The notes under the pieces were generated by a model. That model saw only the letters and a list, made by a program, of their open reading frames with translations. It had not been told where the DNA came from and ran no database searches. A stretch of 64,000 bases of DNA from Candidatus Woesearchaeota archaeon (GTDB lineage Archaea; Nanobdellota; Nanobdellia; SCGC-AAA011-G17; JACPIM01): positions 26,137 to 90,136 of the forward strand of contig JACPIM010000006.1 in assembly GCA_016188045.1 (NCBI GenBank), in the 5' to 3' direction. Position numbers and translations under genes: made by a program. Of the stretch, positions 739 through 59,326 are shown in pieces. The stretch's first letter is position 1. Each line of letters starts with the position of its first letter.

Positions 739-3484
739 GTGATTACAAAACTAAAAAAAATAGACAATATAGAAAAAGCTCAGCCAGAAATTAACATTGG
801 TATGGTTGGACAATAAGTAAGCAAAAGCTTCTTAAGCCAAAGACGTAGACCATGGTAAATGTCTGGCAGCAGATGAAAAAATATTAATAAATAACAGATT
901 AATAGATGGTAGTGAATTAATCCAAAAAGCAAAAACCAATGGAAAATTAGTTTGGAAAAAAGATAATGAAGAGTTATATGATATAAAAGACCTTTATACA
1001 TACTCGTTAGATAGAGAATTTAAAATAAAAAGAACAAAAGCAAAATTATTCTTGCAAAAATATAATGGTAGATTATTAGAAATAACGACCGAGGGCGGAA
1101 GGCAGATTAAATTAACAAAGAACCATCCACTATTAAAAAATAATTTGGAGTGGATTCCTTCTTATAAATTAAAAAAAGGAGACAAAATAGCCATATCTAA
1201 TATAAGAGTGCCTAGCAAAAAGATAAAGTTCTGTGATTGGGAGCAGAAATTAAAAAAGAAGTGGTATTTTTTAACATATACAGAGTATATAAATCTAAAA
1301 AAAATAACCAATAATTTTGCAGATTTCTCTAAATGTTCAGCAAAAGATTTTAATGATTTAAGAATATTAATTAATTTAAGATATAAAGAAATAGCAAAAA
1401 ATACAAAGTTTTCATATTCTTGGGTTACTAAGATATTAAGGCAGGAGAAGAAACTAACCACAAAGCTCATTAATAGGCTAAACAATTATTTTAAAAAAAT
1501 AGATAAGAATAAATTTAAAATAGAAAAAAATGAAATAGTAGTTCAAACAGAAAAACATCCAGAAAGAGTATCTTGTAGATTTAAGGATACAAAAATAGAT
1601 GTAGACGTAGTAAAATGGTTTTCTCTATTACATGCAGAAGGCTACGCAAGAGATAAAGGGTTAGTGGTTGTTCAAAAAAATTACCCTCAAATTTTAAAAG
1701 AATTTATAAAGATATCAGAAGAAAAATTCGGAATTAAGTTTGGTAAAATTTCAAAAGACAAAAATAATGTTACTAGATTTGAGGTATATTCATACCCATT
1801 TATTGACTATTTGAAATATAAATTTAATCTAAAACTAGGTCCATCCAAAGAATCAACAATATGCAACTGGGTTTTATCATTAAACAAAGCTAGTCAAGCC
1901 GTATTCTTAAAATATTTTTTTGGCACAGAAGGTTCTGTTAACGAAAGGGGGAATCAAATACGGTTATGTCAAGTAAATAAAACCAATCTAAATATCCTTT
2001 CTGTTTTATTAAATAATTTTAGTATAAATCATAGATTTCATAATTTGATAAGAAAAAATAAGAAGAATATAGAGTATTACGTAACTATTTCGGGCAAAGA
2101 TAATTTTTATAAATTTACTAAAGAAATTGGTTTTTTTGATAAAGAAAAAGAAATAAAAGTTAAGAAATACCTAAAAAAACTAGGAAATAAACTATTTTTA
2201 ACTAAGTTCGATAATAAATATAAGAATATAACGTTCGATAAAATTAGAAATATAAAGAAGATTAACTATAATGATTATTTAGTTGACCTAGTAGTGCCAA
2301 AATATCATAATTTTTTTGCAGGTTACGGTGGTATACTGTGTCACAATACTACTCTTTTATATGCCCTTACTGGTCGTTGGACAGATACCCACTCAGAAGA
2401 AATCAAAAGGGGTATTACAATCAGATTAGGCTACGCAGACGCCATTATCTATAAAGATAAAAATATTTTCACAAATAAAAAAACAAAAACATCAAAACCA
2501 GTAAGAAAAGTTTCTTTTGTAGATGCTCCAGGACACGAATCTTTAATGGCTACGATGTTGGCAGGTTCAGCAATAATGGATGCAGCTATTTTATTGGTTG
2601 CAGCCAACGAAACTTGCCCTCAACCACAGACTAAAGAACACCTAATGGCTTTGGAGATTATAGGTGTTAAAAACATAATCATAGTTCAAAATAAAATAGA
2701 TTTAGTAACAGAAGAGCAAGCTAAAAAAAATTATGAGGAGATTAAAAATTTCATTAAAGGAACAATAGCGGAAAATTCTCAAATAATCCCAATTTCAGCA
2801 CAGCATAATGTTAACATAGATGTTTTATTAGAAATGATTGCTAATATCCCAACGCCAAAAAGAGATCCTTTAAAACCGCCATTAATGTTTATAGCAAGAA
2901 GCTTTGATATTAATAAGCCGGGACAAGAAGTAGAAGCTTTAGTTGGTGGTGTTCTAGGGGGTTCATTAAAGCAAGGTAAGCTAAAAGTTAATGACGAAAT
3001 TGAAATTCGTCCAGGCATAAAAGAGATAAGTCATGGAAAAGTTAAATGGGTTCCATTAAGAACAAAAATAGCTGACTTAAAGACCGGTGGTTTGTCAGTA
3101 AAAGAAGTTCAGCCCGGAGGTTCAATAGGATTGTTAACAGAACTAGATCCATCTTTAGTTAAATCAGATTCTTTATCAGGTAATATATTGGGTTATCCAG
3201 ATAATTTGCCAGAAGTTTATTATGAATTAAATTTAAAATCTCATTTATTAGACAGAGTTATAGGAACAAAAGAAGAACTTAAAGTAGAGCCAATAAAAAA
3301 AGCAGAATCTTTGTTATTAAACGTAAACTCAACAACAACCGTAGGTGTAGTAACGGAATTAAAAAAAGATCATTTCCATGCAATATTAAAATTGCCAATC
3401 TGTGCTTCAAAAACAGATAGAATTACCATTTCTAGGATTTTGGGCGGAAGATTTAGATTAATTGGTTATGCTGAAATAGTATAA
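739..3484 (+). CDS. eif2g: translation initiation factor aIF2 gamma subunit, interrupted by a 31-nt intervening sequence and a 496-aa intein
   Basis: Frame 1 encodes VITKLKKIDNIEKAQPEINIGMVG from GTG 739, with the SD-like AGGAGGT at 723-729. After a 31-nt insert, frame 2 continues HVDHGK followed by C, the intein start. After HN/T at 2347/2348 it continues TLLYALTGRWTDTHSEEIKRGITIRLGYADA...DAPGHE...NKIDL, a canonical aIF2-gamma/EF-Tu-like GTPase. The mature protein would be about 408 aa. The listed ORF start at 1052 is an internal Met of the intein. Confidence 0.75.
813..843 (+). other. 31-nt intervening sequence splitting the His codon of the GHVDHGK P-loop (putative mRNA intron or recoding site)
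   Basis: Removing 813..843 (equivalently 812..842) joins gga ca|c gta gac cat ggt aaa into MVGHVDHGK. The insert contains in-frame stops (taa, tag) and the palindromes AAGCTT and CTTAAG. Confidence 0.5.
860..2347 (+). other. intein in aIF2-gamma with a LAGLIDADG-type homing endonuclease domain
   Basis: Starts Cys (CLAADEKILINNRLIDGSEL, Hint block A) immediately after GHVDHGK. Central LLHAEGYARDKG and KYFFGTEGSV motifs match LAGLIDADG. Ends VPKYHNFFAGYGGILCHN followed by Thr(+1). Confidence 0.7.
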
Positions 3485-3520: not shown

Positions 3521-3916
3521 ATGAGAAAAGAAATAGAAAATTGGTGGAAACAGGCAGAGGCAGACCTTAACTCAGCAAAGAATAGTTTCAATAGTAAGGA
3601 CTATTATGTCTGTGCATTTTTATGTCAGCAGGCAGTTGAAAAGGCGCTAAAGGCTTTACTTTTTAAGAAAGGATTTGAATTAATAAAAACACATGATTTA
3701 GTTCTATTAGCAAAAAAAATAAATGCACCGGATAATATTATTCAGTTATGTAAGATTCTAACGCCAGTTTATATTGAAACTAGATATCCTAACATTGATC
3801 AAGACGGATTTAAAAAATTTACCAAAGAAGAGACCAAAGAAGAGACCAAAGAAGAGACCAAAGAAGATATTAAGACTGCAGAGGAGATTATAAAATGGAC
3901 AAAAAAAAATCTATAA
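3521..3916 (+). CDS. HEPN domain protein (COG2250-type, TRYPN motif) with a C-terminal KEET tandem repeat
   Basis: QQAVEKALKALL and IETRYPN motifs are typical of the HEPN partner in HEPN/MNT pairs. The gene overlaps the downstream MNT gene. Confidence 0.6.
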   Translation: MRKEIENWWKQAEADLNSAKNSFNSKDYYVCAFLCQQAVEKALKALLFKKGFELIKTHDLVLLAKKINAPDNIIQLCKILTPVYIETRYPNIDQDGFKKFTKEETKEETKEETKEDIKTAEEIIKWTKKNL

Positions 3917-4212
3917 TAAATCAACTTAGAGAATTTAAATTAAAAACCAGCCATGAATTGCCTATAAAGAATATGTATCTATTTGGATCAAGAGCAAGGG
4001 GGAAGGCACATAGATGGAGTGATGTAGATTTGATAATAGTTTCAAAAAAGTTTAAAAAACTAACCTTTAGAAAGAGGGTTACAAAAATGTATGATTACTG
4101 GTATTTGGACTATCCAGTAGATTTTCTTTGTTACACTCCAGAAGAATTTGAAAGAAAAAAGAAAGAATATGGAATTGTAAAACAAGCGGTTAAAGAGGGT
4201 ATTGAGTTATAA
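3895..4212 (+). CDS. minimal nucleotidyltransferase (MNT), partner of the HEPN protein
   Basis: LFGSRARGKAHRWSDVDLIIV matches the Pol-beta NTase GSx9-13DxD motif. It overlaps the HEPN gene by 22 nt. Confidence 0.65.
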   Translation: MDKKKSIINQLREFKLKTSHELPIKNMYLFGSRARGKAHRWSDVDLIIVSKKFKKLTFRKRVTKMYDYWYLDYPVDFLCYTPEEFERKKKEYGIVKQAVKEGIEL

Positions 4213-5463: not shown

Positions 5464-6000
5464 TTATTTGTAATAAAAATACCCCTTGCATCCATTTGGT
5501 AATTTTGAAGGTTTTCTATGTTTAATCATATCTTGAGAAACTGCTTCGCCTCCAAACCATAAAGGAGAGAAGTCAATTGGAACACCATCAAGTTCTTTTT
5601 CATCTGTTCCTATTTCTAAAGCTTTTGTTAAATTTCCAGGACCATGAACACGTTCTCTCAATCCAACTTTATCGTATATATCTCCAGAAATAAACGTCAC
5701 ACAAGAAGGAAATCCTGTCTCTAGAGTTGCTACTCCTAAAACTTTTTTAGCATGTCTTGTTATAACTATTAAACTGCCAGGAGCATACAAAGTTTCTTTT
5801 GCCATATCTCTATCGTCCTCCCAAGGTGCGACTTCTGTTAATCTTGCATATAATTGAGCTTTTCCTTCGCGCTCTCTAACTAGTACTCTTCCTAATAGCT
5901 CTTTTGCAACTTCTTCAGCAGGCCTTGCAAAAAACTTTCTATCTAATGCCTCGCTTCTTTGGGGAATATAATATTCTTCAATAGATTTATTGGGTACCAT
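5464..6000 (-). CDS. 3-methyladenine (methylpurine) DNA glycosylase, Mpg/AAG family-like
   Basis: FFARPAEEVAKELLGRVLV ... EVAPW ... PGNLTKALEI resembles the MPG N-terminus and core. GC and Arg/Ala content are higher than the surrounding genes. Confidence 0.5.
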   Translation of the reverse strand: MVPNKSIEEYYIPQRSEALDRKFFARPAEEVAKELLGRVLVREREGKAQLYARLTEVAPWEDDRDMAKETLYAPGSLIVITRHAKKVLGVATLETGFPSCVTFISGDIYDKVGLRERVHGPGNLTKALEIGTDEKELDGVPIDFSPLWFGGEAVSQDMIKHRKPSKLPNGCKGYFYYK

Positions 6001-6044
6001 TTTATAACTATACAGTAGTCATATAAAGTAAGCTTTATAAACCT

Positions 6045-9000
6045 TTGTGCGATGTATTTTTCATGGAAAAACAAAAGAAATATGCTAATTTTCAAGAGTC
6101 ATGCGAACTAAAAGCAAGAGAAGGGACTCCAGCCGAAAGAGCAGAAGCAAGAAAGTATCTAAAGCCTGGCAAGGTATCTCTAAAACTAGCTCTTGATGCT
6201 GAAAGGAGAAAGTTAGAAAGAGCTACAACTGCAAATGATATTGCATTAATTGAAAGATATGGAAATAATATAGAAAAAGCTGAAGAAATAGGAATGAGAA
6301 CAGGAGAGCTTGAATTGACTTATGAGGGGGCAGAAAGAATTTACAAAAAAGTTAAGCAAATGGTTAAAGAAGCAGGTGTTAGGTCAAACACTGATTATTT
6401 AGGAATGTTTGATGTTTTTGACCCAATAACTGAACAAGACTTCATATCTACAGGAATGCTTTGCCTTGTTCCAGAAGTTAGGGAAATAGTAATGAATAAT
6501 GCAAGCACATTGTACAGGATAGCTTTAACAGCTAATTCTCGAAGAAGTTCGGGTTATGCCTTGCCTACTAGACATAAATCAGAAAGATCTTTTGAAGATA
6601 TGATCAATTCTCCAATTAGAACAATCTATTCTTCCTTGCCCAAACCAAAAGATGAAACAGAAGAAGAATTTCAAAGAAAATTAAAAGTTTTGCTGGACAA
6701 AAAAGTAGAAAGAGAAACCTTTCCTTTATTTAGAGATGCTCCTAAAAAAGCAATAGAAACTTTAGATAGAAAAATAACTGAAACAGAAAATGAAGGCTTA
6801 AGAGAAGCATATCAAAGATTACAAGGAACTTATAAGGGCTACTTGGATTTTAAATTAGAAGGAACAAATTTCAATTTTAGAGACCCAAGAACAGGAGAAC
6901 GTGGAGTTCTTCCTTCTTTGCATCAAAGAAGTGCCTTATATCATTTAATGAAAGAGCAAAAATTGGGAATTTTTGATGGATGTGGGACAGGAAAAACTGC
7001 AATAGCAACTTTAGCTCAACCATTAATTGAAAAACAGACTGGAAAAAAACCAAAAGTTCTTGTTGTAGTCGGTACAAATCAGGCAAAAAAAGCATGGAAA
7101 AAAGGGCTTGTTGGAGATAGTTCTCAAAGATACCTATCTGAACCTCAAAATGTTTTTGTGGTCAATGGAGAAAGAAAAGATAACAGATTTATGGAAGAAA
7201 TTGAAAAAGCAGATTGGGTTGTAATGAATAAAGAACAGTTGATTGTTAAGTCAAATGGAGGAGAAAGATTATTTTATGAAGATTTAAGAGATATGGACTT
7301 TGATTATTTTATTTGTGATGAAGCTCATCATATAAAATCACATAGAAAAACAACCAAAGGAGGCAGGCCCACATTAAGCATAGCTGCCCAAGAATTAGCT
7401 AAAAGTGCAAGATATGTAGCTTTATTGACTGCTTCGCCTATTGCAGACAGGTTAAATGATTATGGAGTGTTAGCAAGCATTCTTCAGCCAGAAAGATTTC
7501 CAACTCCTCAAAGTTTAGCAGAAAAAATAAGGCAAAATCCAAGAGAATTATATACCTTTTTTCATGAAAAAACAGTAAGAAGAACTTCTGAAGAAATTAA
7601 TGAAGAACTAGATTGGGAAGAGCGAGAAATTCCCATAGAAATGACTCCTGTTCAAGAAAAAATATACAGGCATCTTGAATTAGAACAGCCAGAGCAGTTT
7701 TTACAGCAAGCAACAAAAGCTCTTCTTGATCCAAGGCTTGTTGACCCTGAAGTTTTAAGAAGAGCGGGAGTTTTAGGAGAAGTTGGAATAGAAAGCTCTG
7801 CGAAGTATAAAAGATTAGAAGAAATACTTACTTCTGATAAGAGCCCTATAACAAGAGGAGAAAAGTTTGTTATTTTTACAGAATTAAGAGAAGGAGTTAC
7901 AGAACAAGAGCATGAATATTTAAGAAAACGTTATGAAGAAATAGGCCATCCGGAACTTTATGCTCAACTGCAATTAAATTTAACTCTTGACAGGATAATA
8001 GAGAGAGCTATTCAAAAAAAGTTTGGCAAAGAGTTAAAAGTAAGAGTTTTAGATGGTTCAATAACAGACATAGAAGAAAAAGAAAGGATAGTAGATAGAT
8101 TAACTCAAGATTTAGCTGGATTGGTCTGCACAACAGATACGGGAGGAGAAAGCCTTGATTTTAGCTCAGCGAGTTATGCTGCATTTTTAAGTGAAGATTG
8201 CGCCCCTAAAACTTCAGAGCAAGCTTTGTCAAGGCTATTAAGAAAAGGGCAATCTAAAAAAGTTAGAATAGATTATTTTCGTGTTCCAGATTCTCTTGAT
8301 ACAAAAATTAGAGATTATGTTGAGGCAAAAAGAATAGTAATAAAAATTGCTACAGACGGCCACAGCTTGCTTGAAAAAGAGCTAGAGCTGCTTGAAACTT
8401 CTGGAAGAGAAAGATTAATTGAAATGGTAAAAAAAAGCGTTGGCGGAACATCTATAGACACTTATAAGGCTGAAGTCAAAGAATTAGATGATTTTGAAAC
8501 TAAAAAAAGAGTGAAGAAAGGCAAAAGAAGCAGAAGCATAATAACTGCAAGTGATTATGAAACAACAGATGCTCAAAGAGTCAATCAATTAATAGGACAG
8601 AATCCAGTAAGCTGTTGGTTTAACCAAGAATTTGTTGATTTTTACATGAGAACTTTACCAAATCTTTCTCCTCCAGTTGTTCATAAAGCAAGAGTTATTG
8701 ATTTAATAAAAAGAGCAAAAGAAAGACAAGTTGTTTTTCCAAAAAATGTTTTAGCAGAAGCTTCTGGACCTTCAATGCTTTATGAATCTTACCAAGAACT
8801 TTCTCATTTAATAGCTCAAGCAGGAAATTCAATTCCTGAAGTTACAGACAGAGATATTTCTGCTTTAATGTTAGAAAGAGGAAAGAATTCAAGAAAAATA
8901 CTCGGAAATATGAATGGAGATGCAAGCGCAATTACAGACAGAAGCTTTGACATGGTTGACAATGGCTCTCTTCTTTTATTGCCAAGTCCTATTGAAATCA

Positions 9001-9512
9001 AAAAAACATTGTTAGAGTCTCATAGAGTTTTGAAAGAGCAAGGTTTATTGGAATTAGTTTTAAAAAATACAAAATTCTCTGATTCATTTTACTCTGGACT
9101 TGAGAGTTTAGGATTTGAAATTGTTTCAGATAAAAATACAGGCTTTGCAGTTTCTCGAGATTTCTTGAGAAGGCTAAAAGAAACTCATGGAGGGCATTAT
9201 GCAGAAAGTTATGCTTCTAAATTAGAAGATACATACATGCTCTTAGCAAGAAAAGTTGATAATCCAATAGATGTTGATGCAGATGCTTTTAGTTTTGAGC
9301 CTCTTGAAAACAATTCTGGAGAAGAGCCAGAAAGCGCAAGAGATCCAAGTGAATCAAGAAGCATAATGATAGCCAAAGGCAGAGACTATCTAAAGCCTAG
9401 AAGAAGATATCCAAAGAAACCCCAGAAAGTCATTACACCTGAAAGAGAAGTCACAGTTGATAAATGGGGAACTGTCATAGATGTGAAGAAGATAGGAGGA
9501 GAAGATGGTTAA
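6045..9512 (+). CDS. large SNF2-like superfamily-2 helicase/ATPase with long N- and C-terminal extensions
   Basis: Motif I GIFDGCGTGKTAIA, motif II ICDEAHHIKS (DEAH), motif III LLTASPIADRLNDYGVLASIL (SNF2-like TGTPxxN spacing), motif V TDTGGESLDF, motif VI QALSRLLRKGQ. Met 6063 is an alternative start. The gene is Arg-rich and GC-richer than the genome. Confidence 0.65.
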   Translation: MCDVFFMEKQKKYANFQESCELKAREGTPAERAEARKYLKPGKVSLKLALDAERRKLERATTANDIALIERYGNNIEKAEEIGMRTGELELTYEGAERIYKKVKQMVKEAGVRSNTDYLGMFDVFDPITEQDFISTGMLCLVPEVREIVMNNASTLYRIALTANSRRSSGYALPTRHKSERSFEDMINSPIRTIYSSLPKPKDETEEEFQRKLKVLLDKKVERETFPLFRDAPKKAIETLDRKITETENEGLREAYQRLQGTYKGYLDFKLEGTNFNFRDPRTGERGVLPSLHQRSALYHLMKEQKLGIFDGCGTGKTAIATLAQPLIEKQTGKKPKVLVVVGTNQAKKAWKKGLVGDSSQRYLSEPQNVFVVNGERKDNRFMEEIEKADWVVMNKEQLIVKSNGGERLFYEDLRDMDFDYFICDEAHHIKSHRKTTKGGRPTLSIAAQELAKSARYVALLTASPIADRLNDYGVLASILQPERFPTPQSLAEKIRQNPRELYTFFHEKTVRRTSEEINEELDWEEREIPIEMTPVQEKIYRHLELEQPEQFLQQATKALLDPRLVDPEVLRRAGVLGEVGIESSAKYKRLEEILTSDKSPITRGEKFVIFTELREGVTEQEHEYLRKRYEEIGHPELYAQLQLNLTLDRIIERAIQKKFGKELKVRVLDGSITDIEEKERIVDRLTQDLAGLVCTTDTGGESLDFSSASYAAFLSEDCAPKTSEQALSRLLRKGQSKKVRIDYFRVPDSLDTKIRDYVEAKRIVIKIATDGHSLLEKELELLETSGRERLIEMVKKSVGGTSIDTYKAEVKELDDFETKKRVKKGKRSRSIITASDYETTDAQRVNQLIGQNPVSCWFNQEFVDFYMRTLPNLSPPVVHKARVIDLIKRAKERQVVFPKNVLAEASGPSMLYESYQELSHLIAQAGNSIPEVTDRDISALMLERGKNSRKILGNMNGDASAITDRSFDMVDNGSLLLLPSPIEIKKTLLESHRVLKEQGLLELVLKNTKFSDSFYSGLESLGFEIVSDKNTGFAVSRDFLRRLKETHGGHYAESYASKLEDTYMLLARKVDNPIDVDADAFSFEPLENNSGEEPESARDPSESRSIMIAKGRDYLKPRRRYPKKPQKVITPEREVTVDKWGTVIDVKKIGGEDG

Positions 9513-10287
9513 AGAAAGGCCAAGCAAAGAGGAGTTGGAGAGATTGTATTGGGAGGAAGGAATGAGTCAAAGAAAGGTAGCTAAAAAATATAGAATGTCA
9601 GATAATACTTTAATTTGTTTAATGAATAAATTAAATATAAAAAGGAGAAAAACAGGAGGCAGTCCAGAAAGGAGTCCCTGGCCAAATTTTGAAAGTTGGA
9701 AAGCTTATGGAGTAGAAAGAGGTTACGAATTAAGTAATCCCGAAAATGTAAAAAAAGGAAATAAAGAAGAAAGGTCTTGGTATAATAAAGGAAGCAAAAA
9801 AAGATGGATATTAAAGTTTGATTTCAATAGAATGAGATTAGATGGAAAATGGGAAGAATTTCAAGAGTGGGAAAGATATGGCTTAGAGAGGGAATTTAAT
9901 AAAAGAAATCTTAACAGTTTAAGAAATAGTGAAAATGCTGAAGAAAGATCTTGGTATTGTAAAGGAAACAAAAAGAAATGGTTCCCCAAATTTGAATTTG
10001 CTGGGTTGAAAAGAAAAAAAAGATCTGTTAAAAGCGGCCAATGGAAAGATTTACAATTTGCATTACAACAAGCTAAATTATTTCTAGAAAAACACCCAGA
10101 ATATGAAGAATTACCTAGAGCTCGAATTATGTATCGGCTCGGTGTTTTTACCCTCGGACATGCAATCTATACATATCACGGTGGTTTCCCTGTTTTTCGG
10201 CAATTATTAAATGAGTATATGGGAAGAACATCTGTTATTGATCAACCTTCATTATTAGAGCAATATATTGGAGGAGAAAATGACTGA
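9505..10287 (+). CDS. HTH DNA-binding protein, paralog 1 of a three-gene family; C-terminal tail DQPSLLEQYIGGEND
   Basis: N-terminal ELERLYWEEGMSQRKVAKKYRMSDNTL resembles a sigma-r4/resolvase HTH. Internal duplicated motif ERSWY(N/C)KG.KK.W..KF.F. The start overlaps the helicase stop. Confidence 0.45.
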   Translation: MVKERPSKEELERLYWEEGMSQRKVAKKYRMSDNTLICLMNKLNIKRRKTGGSPERSPWPNFESWKAYGVERGYELSNPENVKKGNKEERSWYNKGSKKRWILKFDFNRMRLDGKWEEFQEWERYGLEREFNKRNLNSLRNSENAEERSWYCKGNKKKWFPKFEFAGLKRKKRSVKSGQWKDLQFALQQAKLFLEKHPEYEELPRARIMYRLGVFTLGHAIYTYHGGFPVFRQLLNEYMGRTSVIDQPSLLEQYIGGEND

Positions 10288-11053
10288 TTTTCTGCCTATA
10301 GGAACATTCTATGCAAATCTTTCTGGAGCACAGAGAAGAGCGATATTATATGCTATTGAAAAAGGTCTTGAATTAAGGAATTCTTGTCCTTGGATTGCAG
10401 ACGAGTTTAGGCAAGGAAAATCAATATCCGCTCTTGCACAAGATGAAAGAATAAAAAAAAGTTTTAATGGAAGCATAAAAACTTTGTATAGGGCATTAAG
10501 CCTTGCTTTAGGTGGTTATAATAGGGAAGTTTCTTTTTCTGAAATCCAACAATATTCTGGCTTAATTCCAAATGAAGAATATCTATCTTTAATACAAGAG
10601 CATAATAAACAATCAACCAATGAATGGAATAAACAAATGCAGGAAAGAGGCATAGGACTCGCTGCAATGACGCGCAAACAAAGACAAGAGATTGGTAGAA
10701 GAAGTGGATTGAAACAATTGGAGAATAAGATTGGAATTCATGCGCAAACACTAGAAGAAAGAAAACTCATAATAAAAAAAGCATTAGTTGCTCAAGGCAA
10801 GACTCCTTGGGAAAATGACGAGATGAAACATTGTTATGAATTATCTTTACAAGAAAGATTTAGAAAAAGTTCAAGAGTTAACTGGGAAGATATCGCGGTA
10901 TCTGTTAATCAAAAATATCATGCAGGAAAAAGCCTAAGAGATAACAGAGCAGTTGCAAAGGCAGCAAAAAAATGGGAAGAAAGAAATATGCCTAAGCAAG
11001 AAAGAGAGAATTCTTCTCTTTTAGAGCAGTATATTGGAGAGGAAGATGGGTAA
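10268..11053 (+). CDS. paralog 2 of the HTH family (lacks the N-terminal HTH); C-terminal tail SSLLEQYIGEEDG
   Basis: Shares the C-terminal SLLEQYIG tail with the other two paralogs. The start codon is embedded in the previous gene's terminal ggaggagaaaATGa. Confidence 0.4.
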   Translation: MEEKMTDFLPIGTFYANLSGAQRRAILYAIEKGLELRNSCPWIADEFRQGKSISALAQDERIKKSFNGSIKTLYRALSLALGGYNREVSFSEIQQYSGLIPNEEYLSLIQEHNKQSTNEWNKQMQERGIGLAAMTRKQRQEIGRRSGLKQLENKIGIHAQTLEERKLIIKKALVAQGKTPWENDEMKHCYELSLQERFRKSSRVNWEDIAVSVNQKYHAGKSLRDNRAVAKAAKKWEERNMPKQERENSSLLEQYIGEEDG

Positions 11054-11633
11054 AGAAAGACCGAACAGGGAGGAACTAGAAAGATTGTATACAGGTGAAA
11101 AGTTATCTGCTATTCAAATAGCAAAAGGATACGGAGTTAATTTCGCTAGAGTTTATAAATGGATGAAAGGTTATGAAATAAAAAGAAGAACTAAAAGTGA
11201 AGCAGTTAAATTGTATAATTGTAAAAGAATACCTGGAAAAAATGAATTGAAAAAATTAAAAAATATTCCCATAAAAGAAATTGCGATAAAATATGGGATT
11301 AATCAAACAACTGCCAGAAGTTGGTTAGATAGATATGATATAAAAAGGAAGAAGCATAAAAAAAATGTTAAACGAGGTTCATGGCAAAGTTTAGAATTTA
11401 CCTTAGAACAAGCAAAATTATTTTTAGAAAAGCATTCTGAATATGAAGAATTGCCAAGTGCAAAAATACTTTCAAAAAAAGGATATATAACTCTTGGAAC
11501 AATAATAGTTAGGTATCACGGCGGCTTTCCTGTCTTTAGACAAAAGTTAGAAGCATACATGCGAGGCGAGCCAATTCCTGAAAACCCAACAGATCAACCT
11601 TCATTATTAGAGCAATACATTGAAGATAGTTAA
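11034..11633 (+). CDS. paralog 3 of the HTH family; two HTH-like segments and C-terminal DQPSLLEQYIEDS
   Basis: ELERLYTGEKLSAIQIAKGYGVNFARVYKWM and IKEIAIKYGINQTTARSWL HTH-like segments. LEQAKLFLEKHSEYEELP...YHGGFPVFRQ is shared with paralog 1. Confidence 0.45.
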   Translation: MERKMGKERPNREELERLYTGEKLSAIQIAKGYGVNFARVYKWMKGYEIKRRTKSEAVKLYNCKRIPGKNELKKLKNIPIKEIAIKYGINQTTARSWLDRYDIKRKKHKKNVKRGSWQSLEFTLEQAKLFLEKHSEYEELPSAKILSKKGYITLGTIIVRYHGGFPVFRQKLEAYMRGEPIPENPTDQPSLLEQYIEDS

Positions 11634-11635
11634 CC

Positions 11636-11675
11636 ATTTTTCACAACCCTATTTCAACTTTATTATTTTTTTAAC
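11636..11675. repeat. degenerate third copy of the gyrA 3'-end repeat (TTCACAACCCTA...CAACTTTAT)
   Basis: Shares TTCACAACCCTA and CAACTTTAT with the repeats at 12056 and 13509 but lacks the central GAAACACTAG. Confidence 0.3.
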
Positions 11676-11996
11676 TAACATATCTTGATAAATTTTGAAT
11701 GCCTTACGATTTTCTTTCTTGTAAATATAAGGTGTTCCGATATCTTCTTTACATTTAGGGCAACTTAATGTTGGAATTGTTTTCAAAGGTTTAGTTTCAA
11801 GATTAGTCAGATTCTTTGGATAAAAAATTCTATCAAAATAAAGTCTCCGTAAATTGCCAGGACCATCTTTTTGGTAAACAAGAATCTTTTTACCACAAAC
11901 CCTACAAAATAGATCCATCAATCTTGAATACGTTCCCCTTACAGTTTTATATTTATCTTTTTTGAATTCAAAGCCCACATTATAATAAAATAACAA
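11649..11996 (-). CDS. hypothetical Zn-ribbon protein (CxxC ... CxxC)
   Basis: CRVCGKK and CPKCKED cysteine pairs. 115 aa. Confidence 0.35.
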   Translation of the reverse strand: MLFYYNVGFEFKKDKYKTVRGTYSRLMDLFCRVCGKKILVYQKDGPGNLRRLYFDRIFYPKNLTNLETKPLKTIPTLSCPKCKEDIGTPYIYKKENRKAFKIYQDMLVKKIIKLK

Positions 11997-12190: not shown

Positions 12191-13447
12191 ATGGAAAAAG
12201 CCAAATTAGAAGAATTTAATCATTGGTGGACAACCAGTAAAGTAGACGAAGAGTTAGCCTTGCCATTCAAAAGAAGTATATATTCAGAAATAGAAGGGCA
12301 CATCAATAAAAGGTTCATATTAGCTTTAGTTGGATTAAGGAGAGTTGGAAAAACAACAATAATATATCAAATTATAAAACAGTTACTAGAAAAAAACGTC
12401 GATAAGACAAATATTTTATTTTTTTCATTTGATGAAGTTTCAGCTGAATTAAGTGAAGTCCTAGAAACGTTCAAAGAAGTCCATAACAAAGACTTCAGAA
12501 AAGAGAAAATCTATGTTTTTCTTGATGAAATTCAGAAATGTAATAATTGGGAAAACGAACTAAAAAAATATTATGATCTTTATCCCAAACTAAAATTTAT
12601 AATAAGCGGCTCAGAATCTCTTTTCATAAGAAAAAAAACTAAAGAAACTCTGGCAGGAAGAATTTTTGAATTTGCTCTAAATCCATTCGCTTTTAGAGAA
12701 TATCTTAGATTTAATGAAATTAGTGAAGATGAATTTAAATATGAAACAAAAATAAAACCACTTTTTATTAAATTTGCAGAGAAAGGCGGTTTCCCAGAAA
12801 CATTTTCTTTTGAAACCGACAAGGAGTTTAAGGAATATATTAGGTCTCTAGTAGTTGATAAAATAATTTATAAGGATATTCCGAGAATATTTAAATTAGA
12901 AGACCCAGACTTCTTAAGGGTTCTTCTAGAATTAATTGCTACAAATCCAGGAATGTACATCGATTACCAATCCCTAAGTAAGCAATTTGAGAAAGATAGA
13001 AGAGTAATAAAAAGTTATATCACTTATCTTAAAGAAAGTTTTTTGATAACACTGTTAGGTAATTATAGGAAAGGGAGCATAATAACTTTAAGAAAGAAAA
13101 AAAGAGCCTATCCTGCAGATAATGCTTTGATATATCTATACAAACCAACCATTGATGAAGATTTTTTTGGAAAAATGGTTGAAGTTTTAGTAGTAAATAA
13201 ACTTAAAGCTTCATCTTTCTGGAAAAATAGTGGAGAGATAGACATAGTTCATGAAGATATCCCAATAGAAATAAAATATCAAGAAAAGATAAACTCAGAA
13301 GATTTTAAGCCAATAAAGGAATTTATGAAGAAATTTAATAAAAAAGAGGGTATAATGATAACTAAAAATGAAGAAAGAGAAATAAAGTTTGAAAAAGGCA
13401 TAATAAAGTTAATTCCTGTTTGGAAATGGCTTCTTGAAGAAAAATGA
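12191..13447 (+). CDS. AAA+ ATPase of the archaeal AAA_14/DUF4143 family
   Basis: Walker A LALVGLRRVGKTTII, Walker B VFLDEIQ, and a C-terminal DUF4143-like region. Preceded by a TATA-like TTTATAAATA at 12154-12163. Confidence 0.75.
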   Translation: MEKAKLEEFNHWWTTSKVDEELALPFKRSIYSEIEGHINKRFILALVGLRRVGKTTIIYQIIKQLLEKNVDKTNILFFSFDEVSAELSEVLETFKEVHNKDFRKEKIYVFLDEIQKCNNWENELKKYYDLYPKLKFIISGSESLFIRKKTKETLAGRIFEFALNPFAFREYLRFNEISEDEFKYETKIKPLFIKFAEKGGFPETFSFETDKEFKEYIRSLVVDKIIYKDIPRIFKLEDPDFLRVLLELIATNPGMYIDYQSLSKQFEKDRRVIKSYITYLKESFLITLLGNYRKGSIITLRKKKRAYPADNALIYLYKPTIDEDFFGKMVEVLVVNKLKASSFWKNSGEIDIVHEDIPIEIKYQEKINSEDFKPIKEFMKKFNKKEGIMITKNEEREIKFEKGIIKLIPVWKWLLEEK

Positions 13448-13498: not shown

Positions 13499-16400
13499 TC
13501 AACCGTTTTTCATAACCCTAGAAACACTAGCAATTTTATCCCCTTCTTTTAATCTCATTATTATAACACCCTGGCTGTTTCTCCCAACTTTAGATATATT
13601 ATTTACCTCAGTTCTTATTATCTGTCCTTTAACAGTTATACACATTATTTCATCGTAATCTTTCACAGTTTTAATTCCAACAACTTTTCCATTTTTCTCA
13701 GTTACATTAATATTCTTAACCCCAGAACCACCTCTTTTAATTAATCTATATTCACCCATACTAGTTCTTTTACCATATCCATTCTCAGTAACAGTTAGCA
13801 AATCTCCATCTTCTAAAGCAACCTCCATTCCAATAACCCCATCATCTCTTAATCTAATTCCTCTTACCCCAGTTGCATTTCTTCCCATTACTCTAACATC
13901 TTCCTCATTAAACTTGACAGCTTGCCCGTTTTTAGTTCCAATTATAAAATTTAGATACCCAGGAGTTAATCTAACTTGAACTACTTCATCATTATCATTA
14001 AGATTAATTGCATTTATCCCGCCTTTTCTAGGATTGCTATACTCTGAAAGCAAACTTTTTTTCAAAATTCCTTTTTTAGTAACAAAAATTAAAGAGTGTT
14101 TGTCATCAAATTCTTTTATAGGCAAGACAGCACTTACTTTTTCATTTTCTCCTAAATGCAATAGATTAATCAAAGCCCCGCCTTTTGCATATCTTGAAGC
14201 TTCAGGAATTTCGTAAGCCTTTAGCCAATGAACTCTCCCTTTATTAGTAAAAAACAACAATTGACTTAGATTGCTTGTAATAAATAATTCTTGAACCACA
14301 TCTTCTTCTTTAGTCGTAGTAGCTCTAATACCAGTTCCGCCTCTTCCTTGGCTTCTATAAAGTTCTAAAGAAGTTTGTTTTGCATATCCAGAAGAAGTAA
14401 TAGTCACAACAATATCTTCTTCATTTATCAAATCCTCATTAGTTACAACTTCCTCAATTTGATTTGATATTAATGTTTTTCTTTCATCTCCATATTCATT
14501 CTTGATTTCACTTAATTCGCTTTTTATTATTCCGAATATTTTTCCAATATCAGCTAAAATATTTTTCAATTCTTCTATCAGTATTAACAAATGTTCATAT
14601 TCTTCTTGTATTTTTCTGGTTTCTAAGGAAGTCAATCTTTGTAATCTCATCTCCAAAATAGCATTAGCCTGTATTTCTGTTAGCTCAAATCTCTGAACTA
14701 ATCCCATTCTCGCAACATCAACACTTTCGCTTCTTTTTATTAATTGAACAACAGGATCAATATTACTTAGTGCGATTCTTAAACCTTGCAATATATGTGC
14801 TCTTTTTTCAGCTTTATCTAATTCAAATTTGGTTCTTCTGATAACAACCGTTTTTCTATGAACAATAAATTCCTTAATTAATCCCTTTAAGTCTAAAACT
14901 TTAGGTTCATTGTTTACTAAAGCCAAATTAATAACACCAAACGTAGTTTGTAAAGAACTGAGTTTATACAGTTGGCTTAATATCAATTCACCATCAAAAT
15001 TTTTCTTTAATTCAATTACAATCCTCATTCCCTTTCTGTCGCTTTCATCTCTTATATCTGAAATACCTTCAATTCTTTTATCATGAACTAACTGAGCTAT
15101 TCCCTCAATCAATAATGATTTATTTACCATATAAGGAATTTCTGTTATGATTATCTTATCTTCCATAACTTCTGCCTTGGCTCTTACAGTTAGTTTTCCC
15201 CTTCCGCTTTCATAAGCGCTTTTAATTCCATTTTCTCCTAAAATAATACCGCCAGTAGGAAAATCAGGTCCTTTAATGAATTTCATTAACTCTAAACTAT
15301 TGCATTCAGGATGATCTATTGCAAAAATAATAGCATCACAAACTTCTCTGATATTATGCGGTGGAATATTAGTAGCCATTCCAACAGCAATACCACTAGA
15401 TCCGTTAATTAATAAATTTGGTAATTTACTTGGTAATACGGTTGGTTCTTTTTCACTATTGTCAAAATTATTCACCAAATCAACTGTATCTTTATCAATA
15501 TCAATTAAGATTTCTTCAGCCATTTTGCTTAATTTGGCCTCTGTGTATCTGTATGCAGCAGCAGCGTCTCCATCTACGGAATTATGTACAAAAACACCGC
15601 AATCTAAAAGAAAATTATGATTTTCATTAACTGTGATATCATACACATCTTCTATGTAATCTAAAAATTTAATGCTTACAACATAGTGATTGTATTCTTT
15701 AGCCAATACAACCATTTCATTAATATTTTTAAAGTATCTTATGACATTGTTAAATCTTGGAAAACAATTATTTGTTCTAAATTTATTATAATTTTCTTCG
15801 TTTATATTATCTTCACCAAGAGTAGTAATTAGCCTGTTAACATAATACAGTATTTTGTTCTTTATTATACTTTTTTTATAATTATCATTTTTCCAGTTCA
15901 TCTTATGGGCCATAGCGGCTTTTTGTGCAATATCTTTCATAAAATTTGGTTTATTTTTTAATCTTAACAAATTACTCTTTCTAATGCCGCCTATAACTTT
16001 TTTCCTGAAATTTTCATTGGCCCACAATTTCTTCATTTTTTCGATTTGTAGTTTTTTATACTCTTCATTTTGCCAAGCCTTTTTAGCCATTTCACTTAAA
16101 TGATTATGATTTTCATTAATGAACTTCAATCTGTAATCATTTTCTTTCCAAAGTTTTTTGCTTCTTTCAGAAATCAATTTACGTGCTTCTGAATTATTTC
16201 TATAGAACTCTTTAATGCTCTGTGCTCTTTTTTGTATGACTTCAGGATGTTCTAAAATATTTTTTTTTTGTTTTTCAGATATCTTATTTTTTATTTCTGG
16301 TTTATTTAGTGCCCTTTTGATGCTTTTAATTATAGAATCTCTTTTTTTCTTATCACTCCACATTTTTTTAGAAAATTCTGACATGCATTTTCTTCTTTCA

Positions 16401-17500
16401 GGATGTTTATTATAATTTTCTTTAATTTTATCTGAAAGTTTATGCCTTAATTCTGGATTTTTCCAAAGTTCTTTTCTTTTTTGAGAAGATTTTTTTATAA
16501 AGTTAAGATCTTTGTTTCTTTCAATAAGCCTTTTTCTTAATTTTTCTATATGTTCCGGGTTATTTTTATAGAAGTTTTTAACACCTGCCCTTTGTTTTAA
16601 TCTAAAACCCAAACCCTTCCAATTTTCTTTTATTTGAGTGTTGTGAATTTTTGTATGATCATTCCAACTTAGTCTCTTTAAATTATCTGGACTATTATCG
16701 AGCTTATTAAAATTAACATGGTGTTTTACAGGCCCATCGTTTATAGAATAAAGGCCCCTTTCTAAATTATAGGCATCAGCAATTTCATGGACAAAAAAAT
16801 ATCTATCTTCTTTGTTATCCTTTATCATCAAATAATCTTTTAATTCAGTATTGCCCCTTATCGGACTAAGTTTAAAGTAACCTGGCATTAAACTATCATC
16901 TGGGGTTAAATATCTCGCTTCTTTATATTTTAAATTTTTTAATAAAAATCTGTGATCTGGTGTACATCTTATTATCTCGCCGCCATCTAATGTTATCTCA
17001 ACTATTTCTGAATCTTTCTTTGTTAATCTTGGATTCTTAGCTTCCCCAACTACAATTTTACCATCTTTATTAATAGAATAAACATAAAATATTTCATCTT
17101 TTTTATAAAGTTCACAAAGTTCTTTAAAACTTTTAGAAGTTCCATCTAATAATTTAATTTTTGTATCCCCTGTAAAACAACCAAAATTTCCCTGTCCTTT
17201 AACTAAAGGATATCTTAATGAAAAATTCTGAGCCATTCTGACTAAAGCATCATAAACAGACATATCGCCGTGGGGATGAAATTTTGCTAGAACAGTCCCA
17301 ACGACATTTGCACTTTTCTTAAATGCTTTATTATAATCTAAACCTAATTGTTTCATAGCATAAAGAACTCTCCTATGAACTGGTTTTAATCCATCTCTGA
17401 CATCAGGAATAGCTCTTGCTACAATAACACTCATAGCATAGTCCATATAGGACTGCTTCATCTCATCTTCAATTAGTCTTTCTTGAATTTCTTCTGGCAT
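13499..17500 (-). CDS. gyrA: DNA gyrase subunit A, containing a 533-aa intein
   Basis: N-extein ...[33 protein letters not shown] | C-extein [17 protein letters not shown]..., then GyrA-box-like repeats to the C-terminus. The total of 1333 aa corresponds to about 800 aa of GyrA plus the intein. Confidence 0.85.
13509..13560. repeat. gyrA 3'-terminal coding sequence that is duplicated at 12056..12108 (attR-like)
   Basis: See the alignment with 12056..12108. Lies within the last about 20 codons of gyrA. Confidence 0.6.
15581..17179 (-). other. GyrA intein (gyrA-a site) with an HNH endonuclease motif and an array of about 12 basic 25-aa repeats
   Basis: Begins [13 protein letters not shown] after GNFG and ends CGVFVHN before SVDGD. 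HNH-like [27 protein letters not shown]. Repeats of the type K..W.NPE...K.S.K.KE. Confidence 0.7.
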
Positions 17501-17502
17501 TT

Positions 17503-17997
17503 CTATTTACCTACCACAACTCCCCCGATATAATCTTGATTAAAAACTTCTTCTCCATTATACAATATTCTTTCATGTCCACTAAATCTTCTGATATCGC
17601 CTAGGACTTCGTTTACATATTCCCATTTACCATATTTTAAATTATTGGGCCCCCTAAACGGCATTTGTAAAGGAACCGCACCCAAAGCTTTTTTCAAAAA
17701 ACCAAAAACTTGCTTTGCAAAAGCAACATCACCATAAAATCTATCTATCATACCACCAGAATATGCCATAGTCCAAATTGGTGTCCCATCTTTAACGCCA
17801 ATTCTAACAATCTCCATTCCGGGAGCTTGAAAAAAACCACAATAACTATCTCTGTAATAATATTCTCCTTCTTGGAATTCTAATTCATCAAATCTTGGTC
17901 TTTCTGATGCTATCTTCATTTTATTTACAGAGGCATAAGTATTTTTTTTAGCTTCTACCAAAAACTCTGCTAATTCCTCTAAATTTAATTCTCCCAT
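17503..17997 (-). CDS. hypothetical protein encoded between gyrB and gyrA
   Basis: 164-aa ORF with 2-nt spacing to the gyrA start and to the upstream ORF. No motif recognised. Confidence 0.4.
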
Positions 17998-56699: not shown

Positions 56700-57160
56700 T
56701 TTCTTATTTCATCATTTTTAAGTCTTTCTCTAATCATGGTAGGGTATCTACTTATTATATAATGCTTCAAGCAATGATTGTGCAGCACTAGATACAACTC
56801 CCTATCCTCAAATAAAGGAACAAAAGGAAGAAAAAATGAAAGTTTACCACCACAGTAGAGGTTCCAAGAGCACGAACTTTTAAATCTAAACTGCCATATT
56901 CTGTCCATGCCATAAAAAAGATTCCTTTTTCTTCCATATAACCATTAACGCACCTTTAGCATATAAAAGGTTTGCCATAATTATTAAAAATAGAGGTAGG
57001 TAGGTTATAAGCCACCTTCTGTTGAATCTAACGATTTTCATCATTAATGATTCATTTCAACATCCGACTAAGCGACCTTACCTTTTTTCTAAAGGGGTGT
57101 CTTGCACAAGTTGGGGCTCGCCGTTTCATCCATTTCTACTGAAACATCAGTTTTTTCAAC
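56700..57160 (-). ncRNA. candidate structured non-coding RNA downstream of promoter-like element C
   Basis: GC-richer non-coding block. The only ORF (56693..56908) has an implausible W/C/F-rich composition. Stem-loops such as GTTTC-N13-GAAAC. Fragments faintly resemble RNase P CR-IV/V (GGTAAGGTCGC, ACAGAATATGGCAGTTTAG) but no convincing CR-I was found. Confidence 0.2.
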
Positions 57161-57166
57161 ATCATT

Positions 57167-57205
57167 TTCCGCGAACGCTTTTTTTAAAAGGGTTCTTTAG
57201 CAGTA
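57167..57205 (-). promoter_or_regulatory. conserved promoter-like element copy C (minus-strand TTTTAAAAAAAGCGTTCGCGGAAAATG)
   Basis: TATA-like TTTTAAAAAAA followed by GCGTTCGCGG, as in copies A and B. Confidence 0.4.
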
Positions 57206-57282
57206 GCTGGTCTCGTTTCTGTGCGGTTGCCTTCCATTTCTGAAATCTGATTTGCATCAGACAACTCACTCCAGTAAAGGAG

Positions 57283-57336
57283 TTGATAAGAACTTTTGGT
57301 CAACCAACATAGGAGTTGATAAGAACCTTGGTTCTT
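57283..57336. repeat. two direct GGAGTTGATAAGAAC repeats, the second forming the hairpin ATAAGAACC-tt-GGTTCTTAT
   Basis: GAGTTGATAAGAAC occurs at 57290 and 57322. The perfect 9-bp inverted repeat sits around 57325..57344. Confidence 0.45.
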
Positions 57337-57552
57337 ATTGTGGATGGACTTTCCTCATTTCTTGACTGTTTAAAGTCGAAAAAACGATAGTTGAACACCT
57401 ACCTACTAAAATAATCTATATACTGTAGAATATAAATGTTTTGATTTTAGTGATTAACGTTGAAATAATTGATTTAGGCCTAGTTATGAAACTTTATTTA
57501 CATAGTAAAATCCAGAAAGCCTTATATATAATTTCGCCTTAATAATAACAAA

Positions 57553-58974: not shown

Positions 58975-59326
58975 TACAAAGATTCAAGAATTAAAAGAAA
59001 AAATAAAACAATTTTGCGAGGATAGAGATTGGGATCAGTATCATGGAGCAAAAGAACTTTCAATAGGGGTAATTACGGAGGCTTCTGAATTATTAGAACA
59101 TTTTAGATTTAAATCAGAAAAAGAAATTGAAGAGTTTTTTAAAGATAATAACAAAAAGGAGAAAATTTCTGAAGAAGTAGCTGACGTATTATATTTCATT
59201 TTAAGATTTGCTCAAAGATATGATATTGATCTAGCAACCGTATTAAATAAAAAAATGGAAAAAAATGAACAAAAATATCCTTTAGAAAAATCAAAAGGGA
59301 GTAATAAAAAATATACAGAACTATGA
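58958..59326 (+). CDS. MazG-like nucleotide pyrophosphohydrolase (small all-alpha NTP-PPase)
   Basis: ITEASELLEHF and EEVADVLYFILRFAQRYDIDL match the MazG EExxE/D motifs. Confidence 0.6.
   Translation: MKMDHSTKIQELKEKIKQFCEDRDWDQYHGAKELSIGVITEASELLEHFRFKSEKEIEEFFKDNNKKEKISEEVADVLYFILRFAQRYDIDLATVLNKKMEKNEQKYPLEKSKGSNKKYTEL

Follow-up and report, generated by a model that had tools for sequence, protein, structure and literature searches.

A 64-kb stretch of DNA from a Candidatus Woesearchaeota archaeon (64,000 nt of contig JACPIM010000006.1, hereafter the window) carries, at nt 5464–11633, a five-gene cassette made of three linked parts: a small protein related to the DNA glycosylase AAG/Mpg, from which the catalytic glutamate is missing, a large SNF2-family ATPase fused to a methyltransferase, and an array of DNA-binding proteins, here called adaptors, which share a short C-terminal tail. 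The cassette is a rare, accessory and horizontally mobile unit restricted to Woese-/Pacearchaeota-type DPANN archaea. Its parts belong to known superfamilies and the association of motor, methylase and specificity factor is a known design; the whole is apparently undescribed and matches no catalogued defence system, and no description of an SNF2–methylase/adaptor/AAG-like combination was found in full-text literature searches. The cassette probably modifies or polices DNA. The reading we tentatively favour, to which we give somewhat less than an even chance, is a DNA-conflict system in which tail-docked adaptors would target the motor–methylase and the AAG-like protein would read or excise the mark.

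The motor protein is encoded on the forward strand at nt 6063–9512 (1149 aa from the ATG at 6063; an alternative start lies at 6045). It matches PF00176 SNF2-rel_dom at aa 294–551 (48.6 bits, cut-off 24.9, E=8e-13) and PF00271 Helicase_C at aa 655–735 (28.7 bits, cut-off 23.5, E=1.7e-6), leaving ≈290 aa at the N-terminus and ≈400 aa at the C-terminus, in agreement with the SNF2-type helicase with two long extensions proposed by an initial annotation made from the sequence. Motifs I (Walker A, DGCGTGKT), II (DEAHH) and VI (QxxxRxxRxGQ) are invariant in 33 homologs, the residues concerned being G308–T312, D419-E420-H422 and Q720/R724/R727/G729/Q730, and a helicase profile retrieved from the PDB zebrafish Rad54 (1z3i, 9e-25) and SsoRad54 (1z63, 3.6e-24), followed by ISWI and INO80. 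With two RecA-like lobes (nt 6924–8324, +, residues ≈290–760, as delimited by Pfam, motifs and PDB profile matches), the three motifs and a Pfam score above cut-off, as expected for the SNF2 family, the core can be assigned as a bona fide SNF2 ATPase.

The region preceding the motor (nt 6063–6920, +, ≈286 aa) is an all-alpha, family-specific domain, modelled by AlphaFold2 with 13 helices and a predicted local distance difference test score (pLDDT) of 83.9. Its fold had no match in PDB or BFVD (best E>1), and its profile recovered 47 clusters among 1.84 billion cluster representatives, in all of which the domain occupies the N-terminus of 1100–1400-aa proteins or fragments thereof. The N-terminal extension first described as being of unknown function is thus a confidently folded, all-helical domain. 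A nuclease hidden in this region was considered and rejected, the domain being entirely helical and without fold match.

The C-terminal extension, to which no function had been attributed either, contains a class I S-adenosylmethionine (SAM) methyltransferase domain fused to the motor (nt 8577–9314, +). Methyltransf_11 (PF08241) was matched by 16/16 tested homologs and Methyltransf_8 (PF05148), weakly, by 5/16 (best E=1.3e-4), while the top PDB sequence match was nucleomethylin/RRP8 (2zfu, E=2.7e-5 over 52 residues, 17–18% identity). The AlphaFold2 model of the domain has pLDDT >90 throughout, and Foldseek placed 2zfu first (E=1e-8), ahead of hundreds of class I methyltransferases; there were 827 PDB matches at E≤1e-3, and the best 50 listed were all class I SAM methyltransferases or methyltransferase-fold enzymes. 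In the predicted structure the C-terminal domain is therefore seen as a class I SAM methyltransferase of confirmed fold, the class being defined by a Rossmann-like seven-strand fold with a glycine-rich motif I and an acidic residue following strand 2. Rrp8/nucleomethylin (PF05148; 2zfu) is its best match in both sequence and fold, with a weak similarity, and differs in being a eukaryotic rRNA m1A (1-methyladenosine) methylase not fused to a motor. The other library matches were generic (Methyltransf_11/25/8, UbiE-like, DVU_1556); none was found to the DNA-methylase families N6_Mtase, MethyltransfD12, N6_N4_Mtase and C5 DNA_methylase, nor does a DPPY-type motif occur in the conserved columns. 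Conservation of EGSGPS (G, P and S invariant), DRD (both Asp invariant) and FDMVDNES suggests that the methyltransferase is active and, since the motifs of the ATPase are invariant as well, both activities are likely retained.

The protein ends with a conserved beta-hairpin of ≈20 residues (nt 9444–9509, +; …REVTVDKWGTVIDVKKIGGEDG), modelled as two strands (model residues 373–388, pLDDT ≈75). Its consensus in the different loci is (R)E(V/I)xVDxxGxVxSVKKxGGE, and the Shine-Dalgarno sequence and start of the following gene fall within its final codons. The helicase is, as a whole, a three-domain fusion of an orphan helical N-domain, an SNF2 motor and a class I SAM methyltransferase.

The AAG/Mpg-like gene lies on the opposite strand (nt 5464–6000, −, 178 aa). 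Its product matches PF02245 Pur_DNA_glyco with 36.2 bits (cut-off 27, E=4.9e-9) and the NCBIfam Mpg equivalogs with 24–33 bits, against cut-offs of 116–272. A profile built from 12 cassette-linked AAG-like homologs matched human AAG with E=1.8e-15 and aligned the catalytic ETEAY of AAG to EVAAY of the clade; in the window protein, human Glu125 corresponds to Ala58, within TEVAPW. The PDB match of this profile to 7uek (‘OT3’), a de novo designed TIM barrel, was discarded as spurious. A database search collected 54 clade members (bit scores ≈100–262, with one 102-aa fragment at 90), after which scores dropped sharply and canonical Mpg proteins followed; 13 of the latter, from the same search, were taken for comparison, and the human numbering was checked against known residue identities. 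Glu125 is replaced by Ala, Ser or Gly in 54/54 clade members and His136 is lost, its loop being either deleted or variable; Ser takes the place of Tyr159 in 46/54, and Asp that of Asn169 in 43/54 (Gly in the window protein). All four positions are kept in the 13 canonical proteins. Furthermore, Leu128, neutral and mostly hydrophobic in canonical Mpg, is Glu, Asp or Gln in 52/54 (Glu in the window protein), and Arg182 is Ile or Val in ≈60% of the clade. The stacking aromatic at 127 (Y/W/F in 54/54) and the intercalating aromatic at 162 (F/Y/H in 53/54) are present as in canonical Mpg.

In AAG, the hydrolytic water is activated by Glu125 acting as general base, and the E125Q/A mutations abolish essentially all activity. 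Its replacement in the whole clade means that the clade fails the defining catalytic feature of the AAG family, and the Mpg-like glycosylase of the initial annotation is not plausible as a canonical Mpg. The residues used for base flipping seem to be retained in the clade, but set around a new pocket, so that the protein would be either a base reader or an enzyme of different mechanism or specificity. With AAG/Mpg (PF02245; human AAG 1BNK/1EWN/1F4R) it shares the fold and the Tyr127- and Tyr162-equivalent aromatics, and differs from it in its shorter length (≈150–190 aa) and in its constant linkage to an SNF2–methyltransferase.

The three genes downstream of the motor, all on the forward strand, encode the adaptors H1 (nt 9505–10287, 260 aa), H2 (nt 10280–11053, 257 aa; alternative start 10268) and H3 (nt 11046–11633, 195 aa; alternative start 11034). 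H1 is built of a helix-turn-helix (HTH), two ≈50-aa repeats, an HNH_repeat-like unit and the tail SLLEQYIGGEND; H3 of two HTH units, an HNH_repeat-like unit and the tail SLLEQYIEDS, which has no GG and no downstream gene; H2 of an unrelated body of unknown fold and the tail SSLLEQYIGEEDG. H1 and H3 are paralogs (46% identity, E=1.5e-28), also linked by a 104-nt DNA repeat. H2, on the contrary, aligned to them by BLASTP over the C-terminal tail only (14–16 residues), had no match in Pfam, NCBIfam, PHROG or PADLOC and no homologs in other loci by jackhmmer. Of the three overlapping paralogous HTH proteins initially described, the overlaps and the H1/H3 relationship are thus retained, H2 having in common with the other two the tail alone.

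H3 matches HTH_28 (E=1.5e-10), HTH_23 (E=9.5e-8) and PHROG 7545 (E=1.7e-15), H1 matches the DNA-binding part of PHROG ‘HNH endonuclease’ families, and a phmmer search with H1 found array genes in 15 loci. Both carry a unit ending in YHGGFPVFR, which in the array proteins of other loci scores as PF18780 ‘homing endonuclease associated repeat’ (55.9–59.9 bits, cut-off 26); no Pfam PF18780 match at E≤0.1 was obtained for the window H1 and H3, despite their N-terminal PHROG ‘HNH endonuclease’ matches. The arrays, of 1–10 genes, encode only DNA-binding units (HTH/HNH_repeat) and no nuclease or other enzymatic domain was seen in their products; a nuclease was dismissed even for the large members, which show HTH/HNH_repeat units only. 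The adaptors were mapped by local phmmer/jackhmmer on the fetched loci; a word-indexed homolog search with H3 returned only 3 proteins because adaptors diverge too fast.

The tail has the consensus QLEsLLExY[V/I]GGE and is encoded in the window by a DNA repeat at nt 10240–10273, 11006–11039 and 11592–11625 (76–94% identical). Its strict pattern is present in 48/60 C-terminally complete array proteins (56/60 if relaxed) and in 0/378 other open reading frames (ORFs), and it is the only feature that H2 has in common with other non-homologous array members, such as the tail-bearing products of L009 6271–6918, L011 6799–8022 and L016 19112–20527 (L numbers designate the loci). A relaxed motif without the leading LEx occurs within the first 35 residues of 19/60 array proteins, and the full motif is internal in two ≈830-aa proteins that look like fusions. 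The GG(E) overlaps the Shine-Dalgarno sequence of the next gene and is often absent in the last gene of the array (e.g., LLEQYIEDS in the window H3), so that GG(E) is at least partly constrained at the nucleic acid level; the LExLLExY core, instead, is a protein-level signature within a short, helix-like tail. A PCNA-interacting protein (PIP) box was considered and rejected, since the hydrophobic and aromatic residues of QLEsLLExY[VI] are out of register with Qxx[LIM]xx[FY][FY]. Repeat proteins resembling the adaptors may not be confined to the array, as a 1512-aa protein with faint HNH_repeat matches was noted in L030 (1–753, −, and neighbours), ≈5 kb upstream of the cassette and on the opposite strand.

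The ORFs and coordinates first assigned to the island were correct, including the convergent stops of a TrmB-type gene at 5462 and of the AAG-like gene at 5464, and the ATG starts of the motor protein and of H3 agree with their database copies. With ATG starts, the three junctions between motor, H1, H2 and H3 share an identical 8-nt overlap (ATGnnTAA or ATGnnTGA), each preceded by GGAGG, an arrangement as would be expected for translational coupling. The AAG-like gene and the motor gene diverge from a 62-bp, A/T-rich intergenic region (nt 6001–6062, read from the sequence), a putative promoter region with TATA-like boxes TTTTATAA at 6000–6007 and CTTTATAAAC at 6034–6043; the same divergent arrangement is seen again in most loci.

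Full-length homologs of the helicase are 48 in number (36–70% identity), with taxonomic labels nearly all of Woesearchaeota, Pacearchaeota or Nanoarchaeota, and a helicase scan of 185,579 species genomes returned 17 loci. When mapped by local phmmer/jackhmmer and precomputed Pfam tables, the trio was found conserved in ≈20 independent loci with different flanks. The AAG-like gene lies inside the cassette in 15 loci, most of the others ending on the relevant side, and the tail-bearing array follows the helicase in every locus with downstream sequence; in some loci array genes also precede it, and fusions and fissions of partner genes occur. In L015, L016 and L021 the AAG-like gene is placed after the array: the order changes and the linkage persists. 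A reciprocal look-up from two AAG-clade proteins landed beside helicase and array, the two families are of similar size (48 helicases and 54 AAG-clade proteins), and the divergences of helicase and AAG-like protein are correlated (Mantel r=0.42, 41/5000 permutations). The contigs of L010, L014 and L015 are labelled Gammaproteobacteria, Acidobacteriota and Methanosarcinales in the records of their metagenome-assembled genomes; judging from gene content, including archaeal rpo/rps genes in L015, they are probably mis-binned DPANN contigs.

A fourth conserved component was sought by all-vs-all BLAST of 228 unassigned neighbouring ORFs, and no family extended beyond 3–4 loci. One candidate, a CxxC zinc-ribbon ORF convergent with H3 (nt 11649–11996, −, 115 aa; weak match to the RIG-I C-terminal regulatory domain, E=0.001), was rejected, since the other loci do not have it beside the cassette.

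The recurrence of the trio in unrelated flanks identifies it as an accessory, mobile cassette and not a core gene, in line with the accessory module of an SNF2 ATPase with dedicated DNA-binding partners initially envisaged. TrbC and VirB4/TraC genes are directly upstream in L004/L019, as are TrbL and TraC in L023, which also has a tyrosine integrase within 10 kb; a tyrosine integrase within 10 kb and many small ORFs accompany L024, and L030 is flanked by an IS200-type transposase and VapBC. Elsewhere the neighbours are SerRS, S10 and Tmk (L001), a HepT-MNT toxin–antitoxin and nucleotide-metabolism genes (L033), or, in L025, rpoB-rpoA-L30e-nusA on one side and rps12-rps7 on the other, with the cassette in opposite orientation. 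As these two groups of genes are contiguous in archaea, the cassette of L025 is an insertion.

The transfer genes and integrases of L004/L019, L023 and L024 would fit an offensive role, in which integrative or conjugative elements would carry the cassette as cargo for establishment or anti-restriction, the motor–methylase modifying the element's own incoming DNA and the adaptors recognizing element sequences. The strongest library match of the helicase is indeed a phage family (phrog_62 ‘DNA helicase’, E=7.6e-40), and SNF2–DNA-adenine-methylase dyads, with P1 DarB as prototype, are typical of phages and conjugative elements, the coupling of SNF2 and methylase being an established theme of conflict systems, restriction systems included (PMC5512222). 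The cassette resembles DarB-type and polyvalent-protein dyads in having motor and methylase in one polypeptide, in its association with mobile DNA and in the proposed logic of translocation coupled to DNA methylation. However, no relative of the cassette was found among 2.9 million IMG/VR contigs, and the phage and plasmid databases INPHARED and PLSDB gave only generic SNF2 matches at ≈25% identity at most; a viral or plasmid origin was rejected on these grounds, and the likeness to viral or plasmid modules suggested at first was not supported. Moreover, transfer genes are missing from the majority of loci, several of which lie inside core operons; the DarB-type methylase is an N6-adenine enzyme N-terminal to the helicase, whereas that of the cassette is a class I Rrp8-like domain C-terminal to it; and DarB-type dyads have neither separate adaptors nor a counterpart of the AAG-like protein. 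We consider element cargo unlikely, though with a real chance of being right.

The window itself is chromosomal DNA of a Woesearchaeota-type DPANN archaeon, encoding an archaeal 23S rRNA fragment, an archaeal RNase P RNA, eIF2-gamma, gyrA/gyrB, enolase, exosome subunits, SBDS and HisRS, with the cassette between eIF2-gamma and gyrA/gyrB; neither a tRNA in the window nor an integrase in its annotated flanks was found. This setting would be compatible with a housekeeping module peculiar to the lineage and serving chromatin remodelling, transcription or alkylation repair, in which sequence-specific factors would recruit an SNF2 remodeller, the degenerate glycosylase would be a lesion sensor and the methylase would act on RNA or protein. 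Along the same line, the cassette adjoins nucleotide-metabolism genes in L001/L007 as well as in L033, and RNA polymerase and ribosomal genes in L015/L025, its methyltransferase is closest to an rRNA methylase, and the correlated divergence of helicase and AAG-like protein is also predicted by vertical descent.

Base composition also bears on the origin of the cassette. The island is richer in G+C than its neighbours, as previously remarked (33.8% versus 29.8% for the rest of the window), being the G+C-richest 6.2-kb stretch of the window and ≈2 standard deviations (SD) above the mean (30.3%, SD 1.6). The G+C content at third codon positions (GC3) of the five cassette genes (0.17–0.23) is, however, indistinguishable from that of the flanking genes, which agrees with a housekeeping function, and the excess is confined to codon positions 1 and 2, giving more Arg, Ala and Gly and fewer Lys, Ile and Asn. 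Across homologous loci the cassette stays at ≈28–39% G+C, whether the host flank is at 26% or at 44%: it is richer than the AT-rich flanks in L009, L011, L013 and L020 (28–33% versus 26–29%) and poorer than the G+C-rich flank in L012 (38.6% versus 44.3%). With host-like GC3 and a stable cassette G+C in such different hosts, the signal therefore reflects a constrained protein composition and gives no indication of recent import. A recent foreign origin on compositional grounds was rejected, the earlier term ‘compositionally foreign’ overstating an effect of codon positions 1 and 2.

A housekeeping role is nonetheless improbable. The module is very rare for such a role (17/185,579 species genomes and 47 clusters in 1.84 billion), its flanks differ in almost every locus, partner-gene copy number ranges from 1 to 10, with fusions and fissions, and in L015/L025 the cassette, in opposite orientation, interrupts an otherwise conserved operon. 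Rarity and variable context likewise exclude a core Rad54/Mot1-type orthologue, one of the conditions under which the initial annotation would have been abandoned. Finally, a selfish homing-type element is highly improbable. Its adaptors, of homing-endonuclease origin in their DNA-binding modules, would guide methylation followed by excision to an empty target site, where the resulting abasic site would give rise to a break and the cassette would be copied in by repair. The PF18780 and HTH units of the array proteins speak for it, as do the PHROG ‘HNH endonuclease’ matches of the window proteins, which cover the DNA-binding part of these families, the core operon into which a cassette is inserted with apparent precision, and two intein/homing elements in the window, showing such elements to be active in this genome. 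The cassette, however, has no nuclease domain in any of its parts, its insertion sites vary from locus to locus with no recurring target, no flanking repeats were found, and a single homing site can hardly account for ten different adaptors.

The two inteins lie within 15 kb of each other. That of the eIF2-gamma gene (nt 1052–3484, +) has a LAGLIDADG domain (Intein_splicing E=1.8e-19, LAGLIDADG_3 E=6.8e-13), and gyrA (nt 13499–17500, −, 1333 aa) is interrupted by one of ≈480 aa, recognized by eye from the translation, the middle of which is a long Lys/Asn-rich run of short repeats (…KxxWxNPE…) that, also by eye, looks like the repeat-type DNA-binding region of a homing endonuclease.

Among known systems, the initial annotation had compared the helicase with that of DISARM while stating that the island does not match this system, which proved right. 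Like DISARM, in which the SNF2 helicase DrmD goes with a DrmMI/MII methylase, the cassette combines an SNF2-family ATPase and a methyltransferase in an accessory locus, and its helicase partially matches PADLOC DrmD with E=3.4e-10; on the other hand, the NCBIfam DrmD model scores it at 19 bits, far below the cut-off of 610, DrmA, DrmB (DUF1998) and DrmC are absent from the window island and from the ≈20 loci, the methylase forms one chain with the motor and does not belong to the N6-adenine or C5-cytosine DNA methyltransferases, and DISARM is not known to have AAG-like or adaptor-array components. Membership in DISARM, BREX, Zorya, Dpd or Hma was rejected, as matches were partial and generic to SNF2, and partner genes were absent.

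Type ISP (LlaGI/LlaBIII) and Type I restriction–modification systems join an ATP-driven motor and a methylase guided by a sequence-recognition module, and the multiple alternative HsdS subunits of Type I systems (HsdR/M) resemble the adaptor array. The cassette differs from them in having no nuclease domain and no target recognition domain/HsdS fold, and in its motor, which is a true SNF2 and not the superfamily 2 motor of Type I/ISP; its specificity would come from tail-docked HTH/HNH_repeat proteins. A precedent for a glycosylase-fold sensor or effector acting against modified foreign DNA is given by the glycosylase-based antiviral defences Brig1 and Dag1/2 (PMC11078745; bioRxiv 10.1101/2025.10.29.685425). 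These are single-gene systems targeting phage-made modifications, none of them being described as AAG-fold or coupled to an SNF2–methylase or to adaptor arrays.

In the DNA-conflict system that we propose, the tail would dock each adaptor onto the motor protein, most plausibly onto the orphan N-domain, so that a single motor–methylase could be brought to chosen sites by alternative sequence-specific adaptors. By translocating along the DNA or distorting it, with ATP as fuel, the motor would then make a base accessible to the methylase, and the AAG-like protein would flip out and read the methyl-base, or remove it through non-canonical chemistry. Overall, the cassette would act in conflicts by way of DNA modification, whether to ward off mobile DNA or to help it become established. 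Domain identities, conservation and mobility of the trio, the common tail and the loss of Glu125 are shown by the data, while the defence function, the docking, the DNA substrate and the link between methylation and the AAG-like protein are inferred.

Several observations weigh against this proposal. The cassette contains no nuclease or other obvious effector, and PADLOC recognizes in it generic SNF2 similarity only and no system. The methyltransferase resembles class I enzymes acting on RNA or small molecules (Rrp8, UbiE-like) and not a known DNA methyltransferase family, its fusion to the motor being all that would point to DNA as the substrate, and the AAG-like protein may be catalytically dead. 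Several loci are surrounded by housekeeping genes and have no marker of mobile elements up to 10 kb away, and the window copy is not convincingly bounded by terminal repeats or a target-site duplication.

A more specific version of the proposal, which we hold to be rather doubtful, is a programmable ‘write-and-read/excise’ base system, in which interchangeable adaptors with DNA-binding modules of homing-endonuclease type, docked by their common tail onto the SNF2 motor, ring-nitrogen methylation and an AAG-fold reader or remover would together silence or destroy foreign DNA or mark self. The Rrp8-like methylase would place, e.g., m1A, m3A (3-methyladenine) or m7G (7-methylguanine) on the targeted DNA, and the AAG-fold partner, having lost Glu and gained Asp in the pocket, would recognize or remove the methyl-base.

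The neighbours of the cassette in the window are a HEPN–MNT pair, a TrmB regulator and an AAA_14/DUF4143 ATPase. The HEPN (E=1.2e-31) and MNT/NTP_transf_2 (E=1e-13) toxin–antitoxin genes (nt 3521–4212, +) overlap by 22 nt, and a 12-nt tandem repeat in three copies (nt 3812–3859) lies near their junction. The AAA_14/DUF4143 ATPase (nt 12191–13447, +), whose gene begins ≈560 bp after the cassette, was assigned by PADLOC to PDC-S01, a candidate defence family (E=9.6e-67). A DUF5680 protein is encoded between gyrA and gyrB (nt 17503–17997, −), and a DUF5680 fragment was also seen just downstream of the L030 cassette. Farther away, a 622-aa protein (nt 59323–61191, +) with a Schlafen group 3 helicase domain (E=2.2e-83) could be another conflict-related ATPase in a small genome, and the RNase P RNA match (nt 56996–57406, −) spans 411 nt against a 288-position model, implying ≈120 nt of insertions relative to the consensus.

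DPANN archaea have very small genomes, in which, to our knowledge, few systems of defence or DNA modification have been described; for them an accessory cassette of 6–16 kb represents a large investment. If the proposed function is true, the cassette would provide a motor-coupled methylase of non-DNA-methyltransferase lineage acting on DNA, together with an AAG-fold protein repurposed as reader, or as non-canonical excision enzyme, for an enzymatically written base. Its modular docking, one tail serving many DNA-binding bodies, could be put to use for targeted DNA modification, and the whole would have its eukaryotic counterpart in DNA methylation assisted by remodellers and demethylation mediated by glycosylases. 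Should the write-and-excise version hold, this would be the first pathway of enzyme-made alkyl lesions used as an archaeal immune or epigenetic mechanism. Should the mechanism prove wrong, the Glu-less AAG clade and the orphan N-domain would still stand as two well-defined protein families open to biochemical study.

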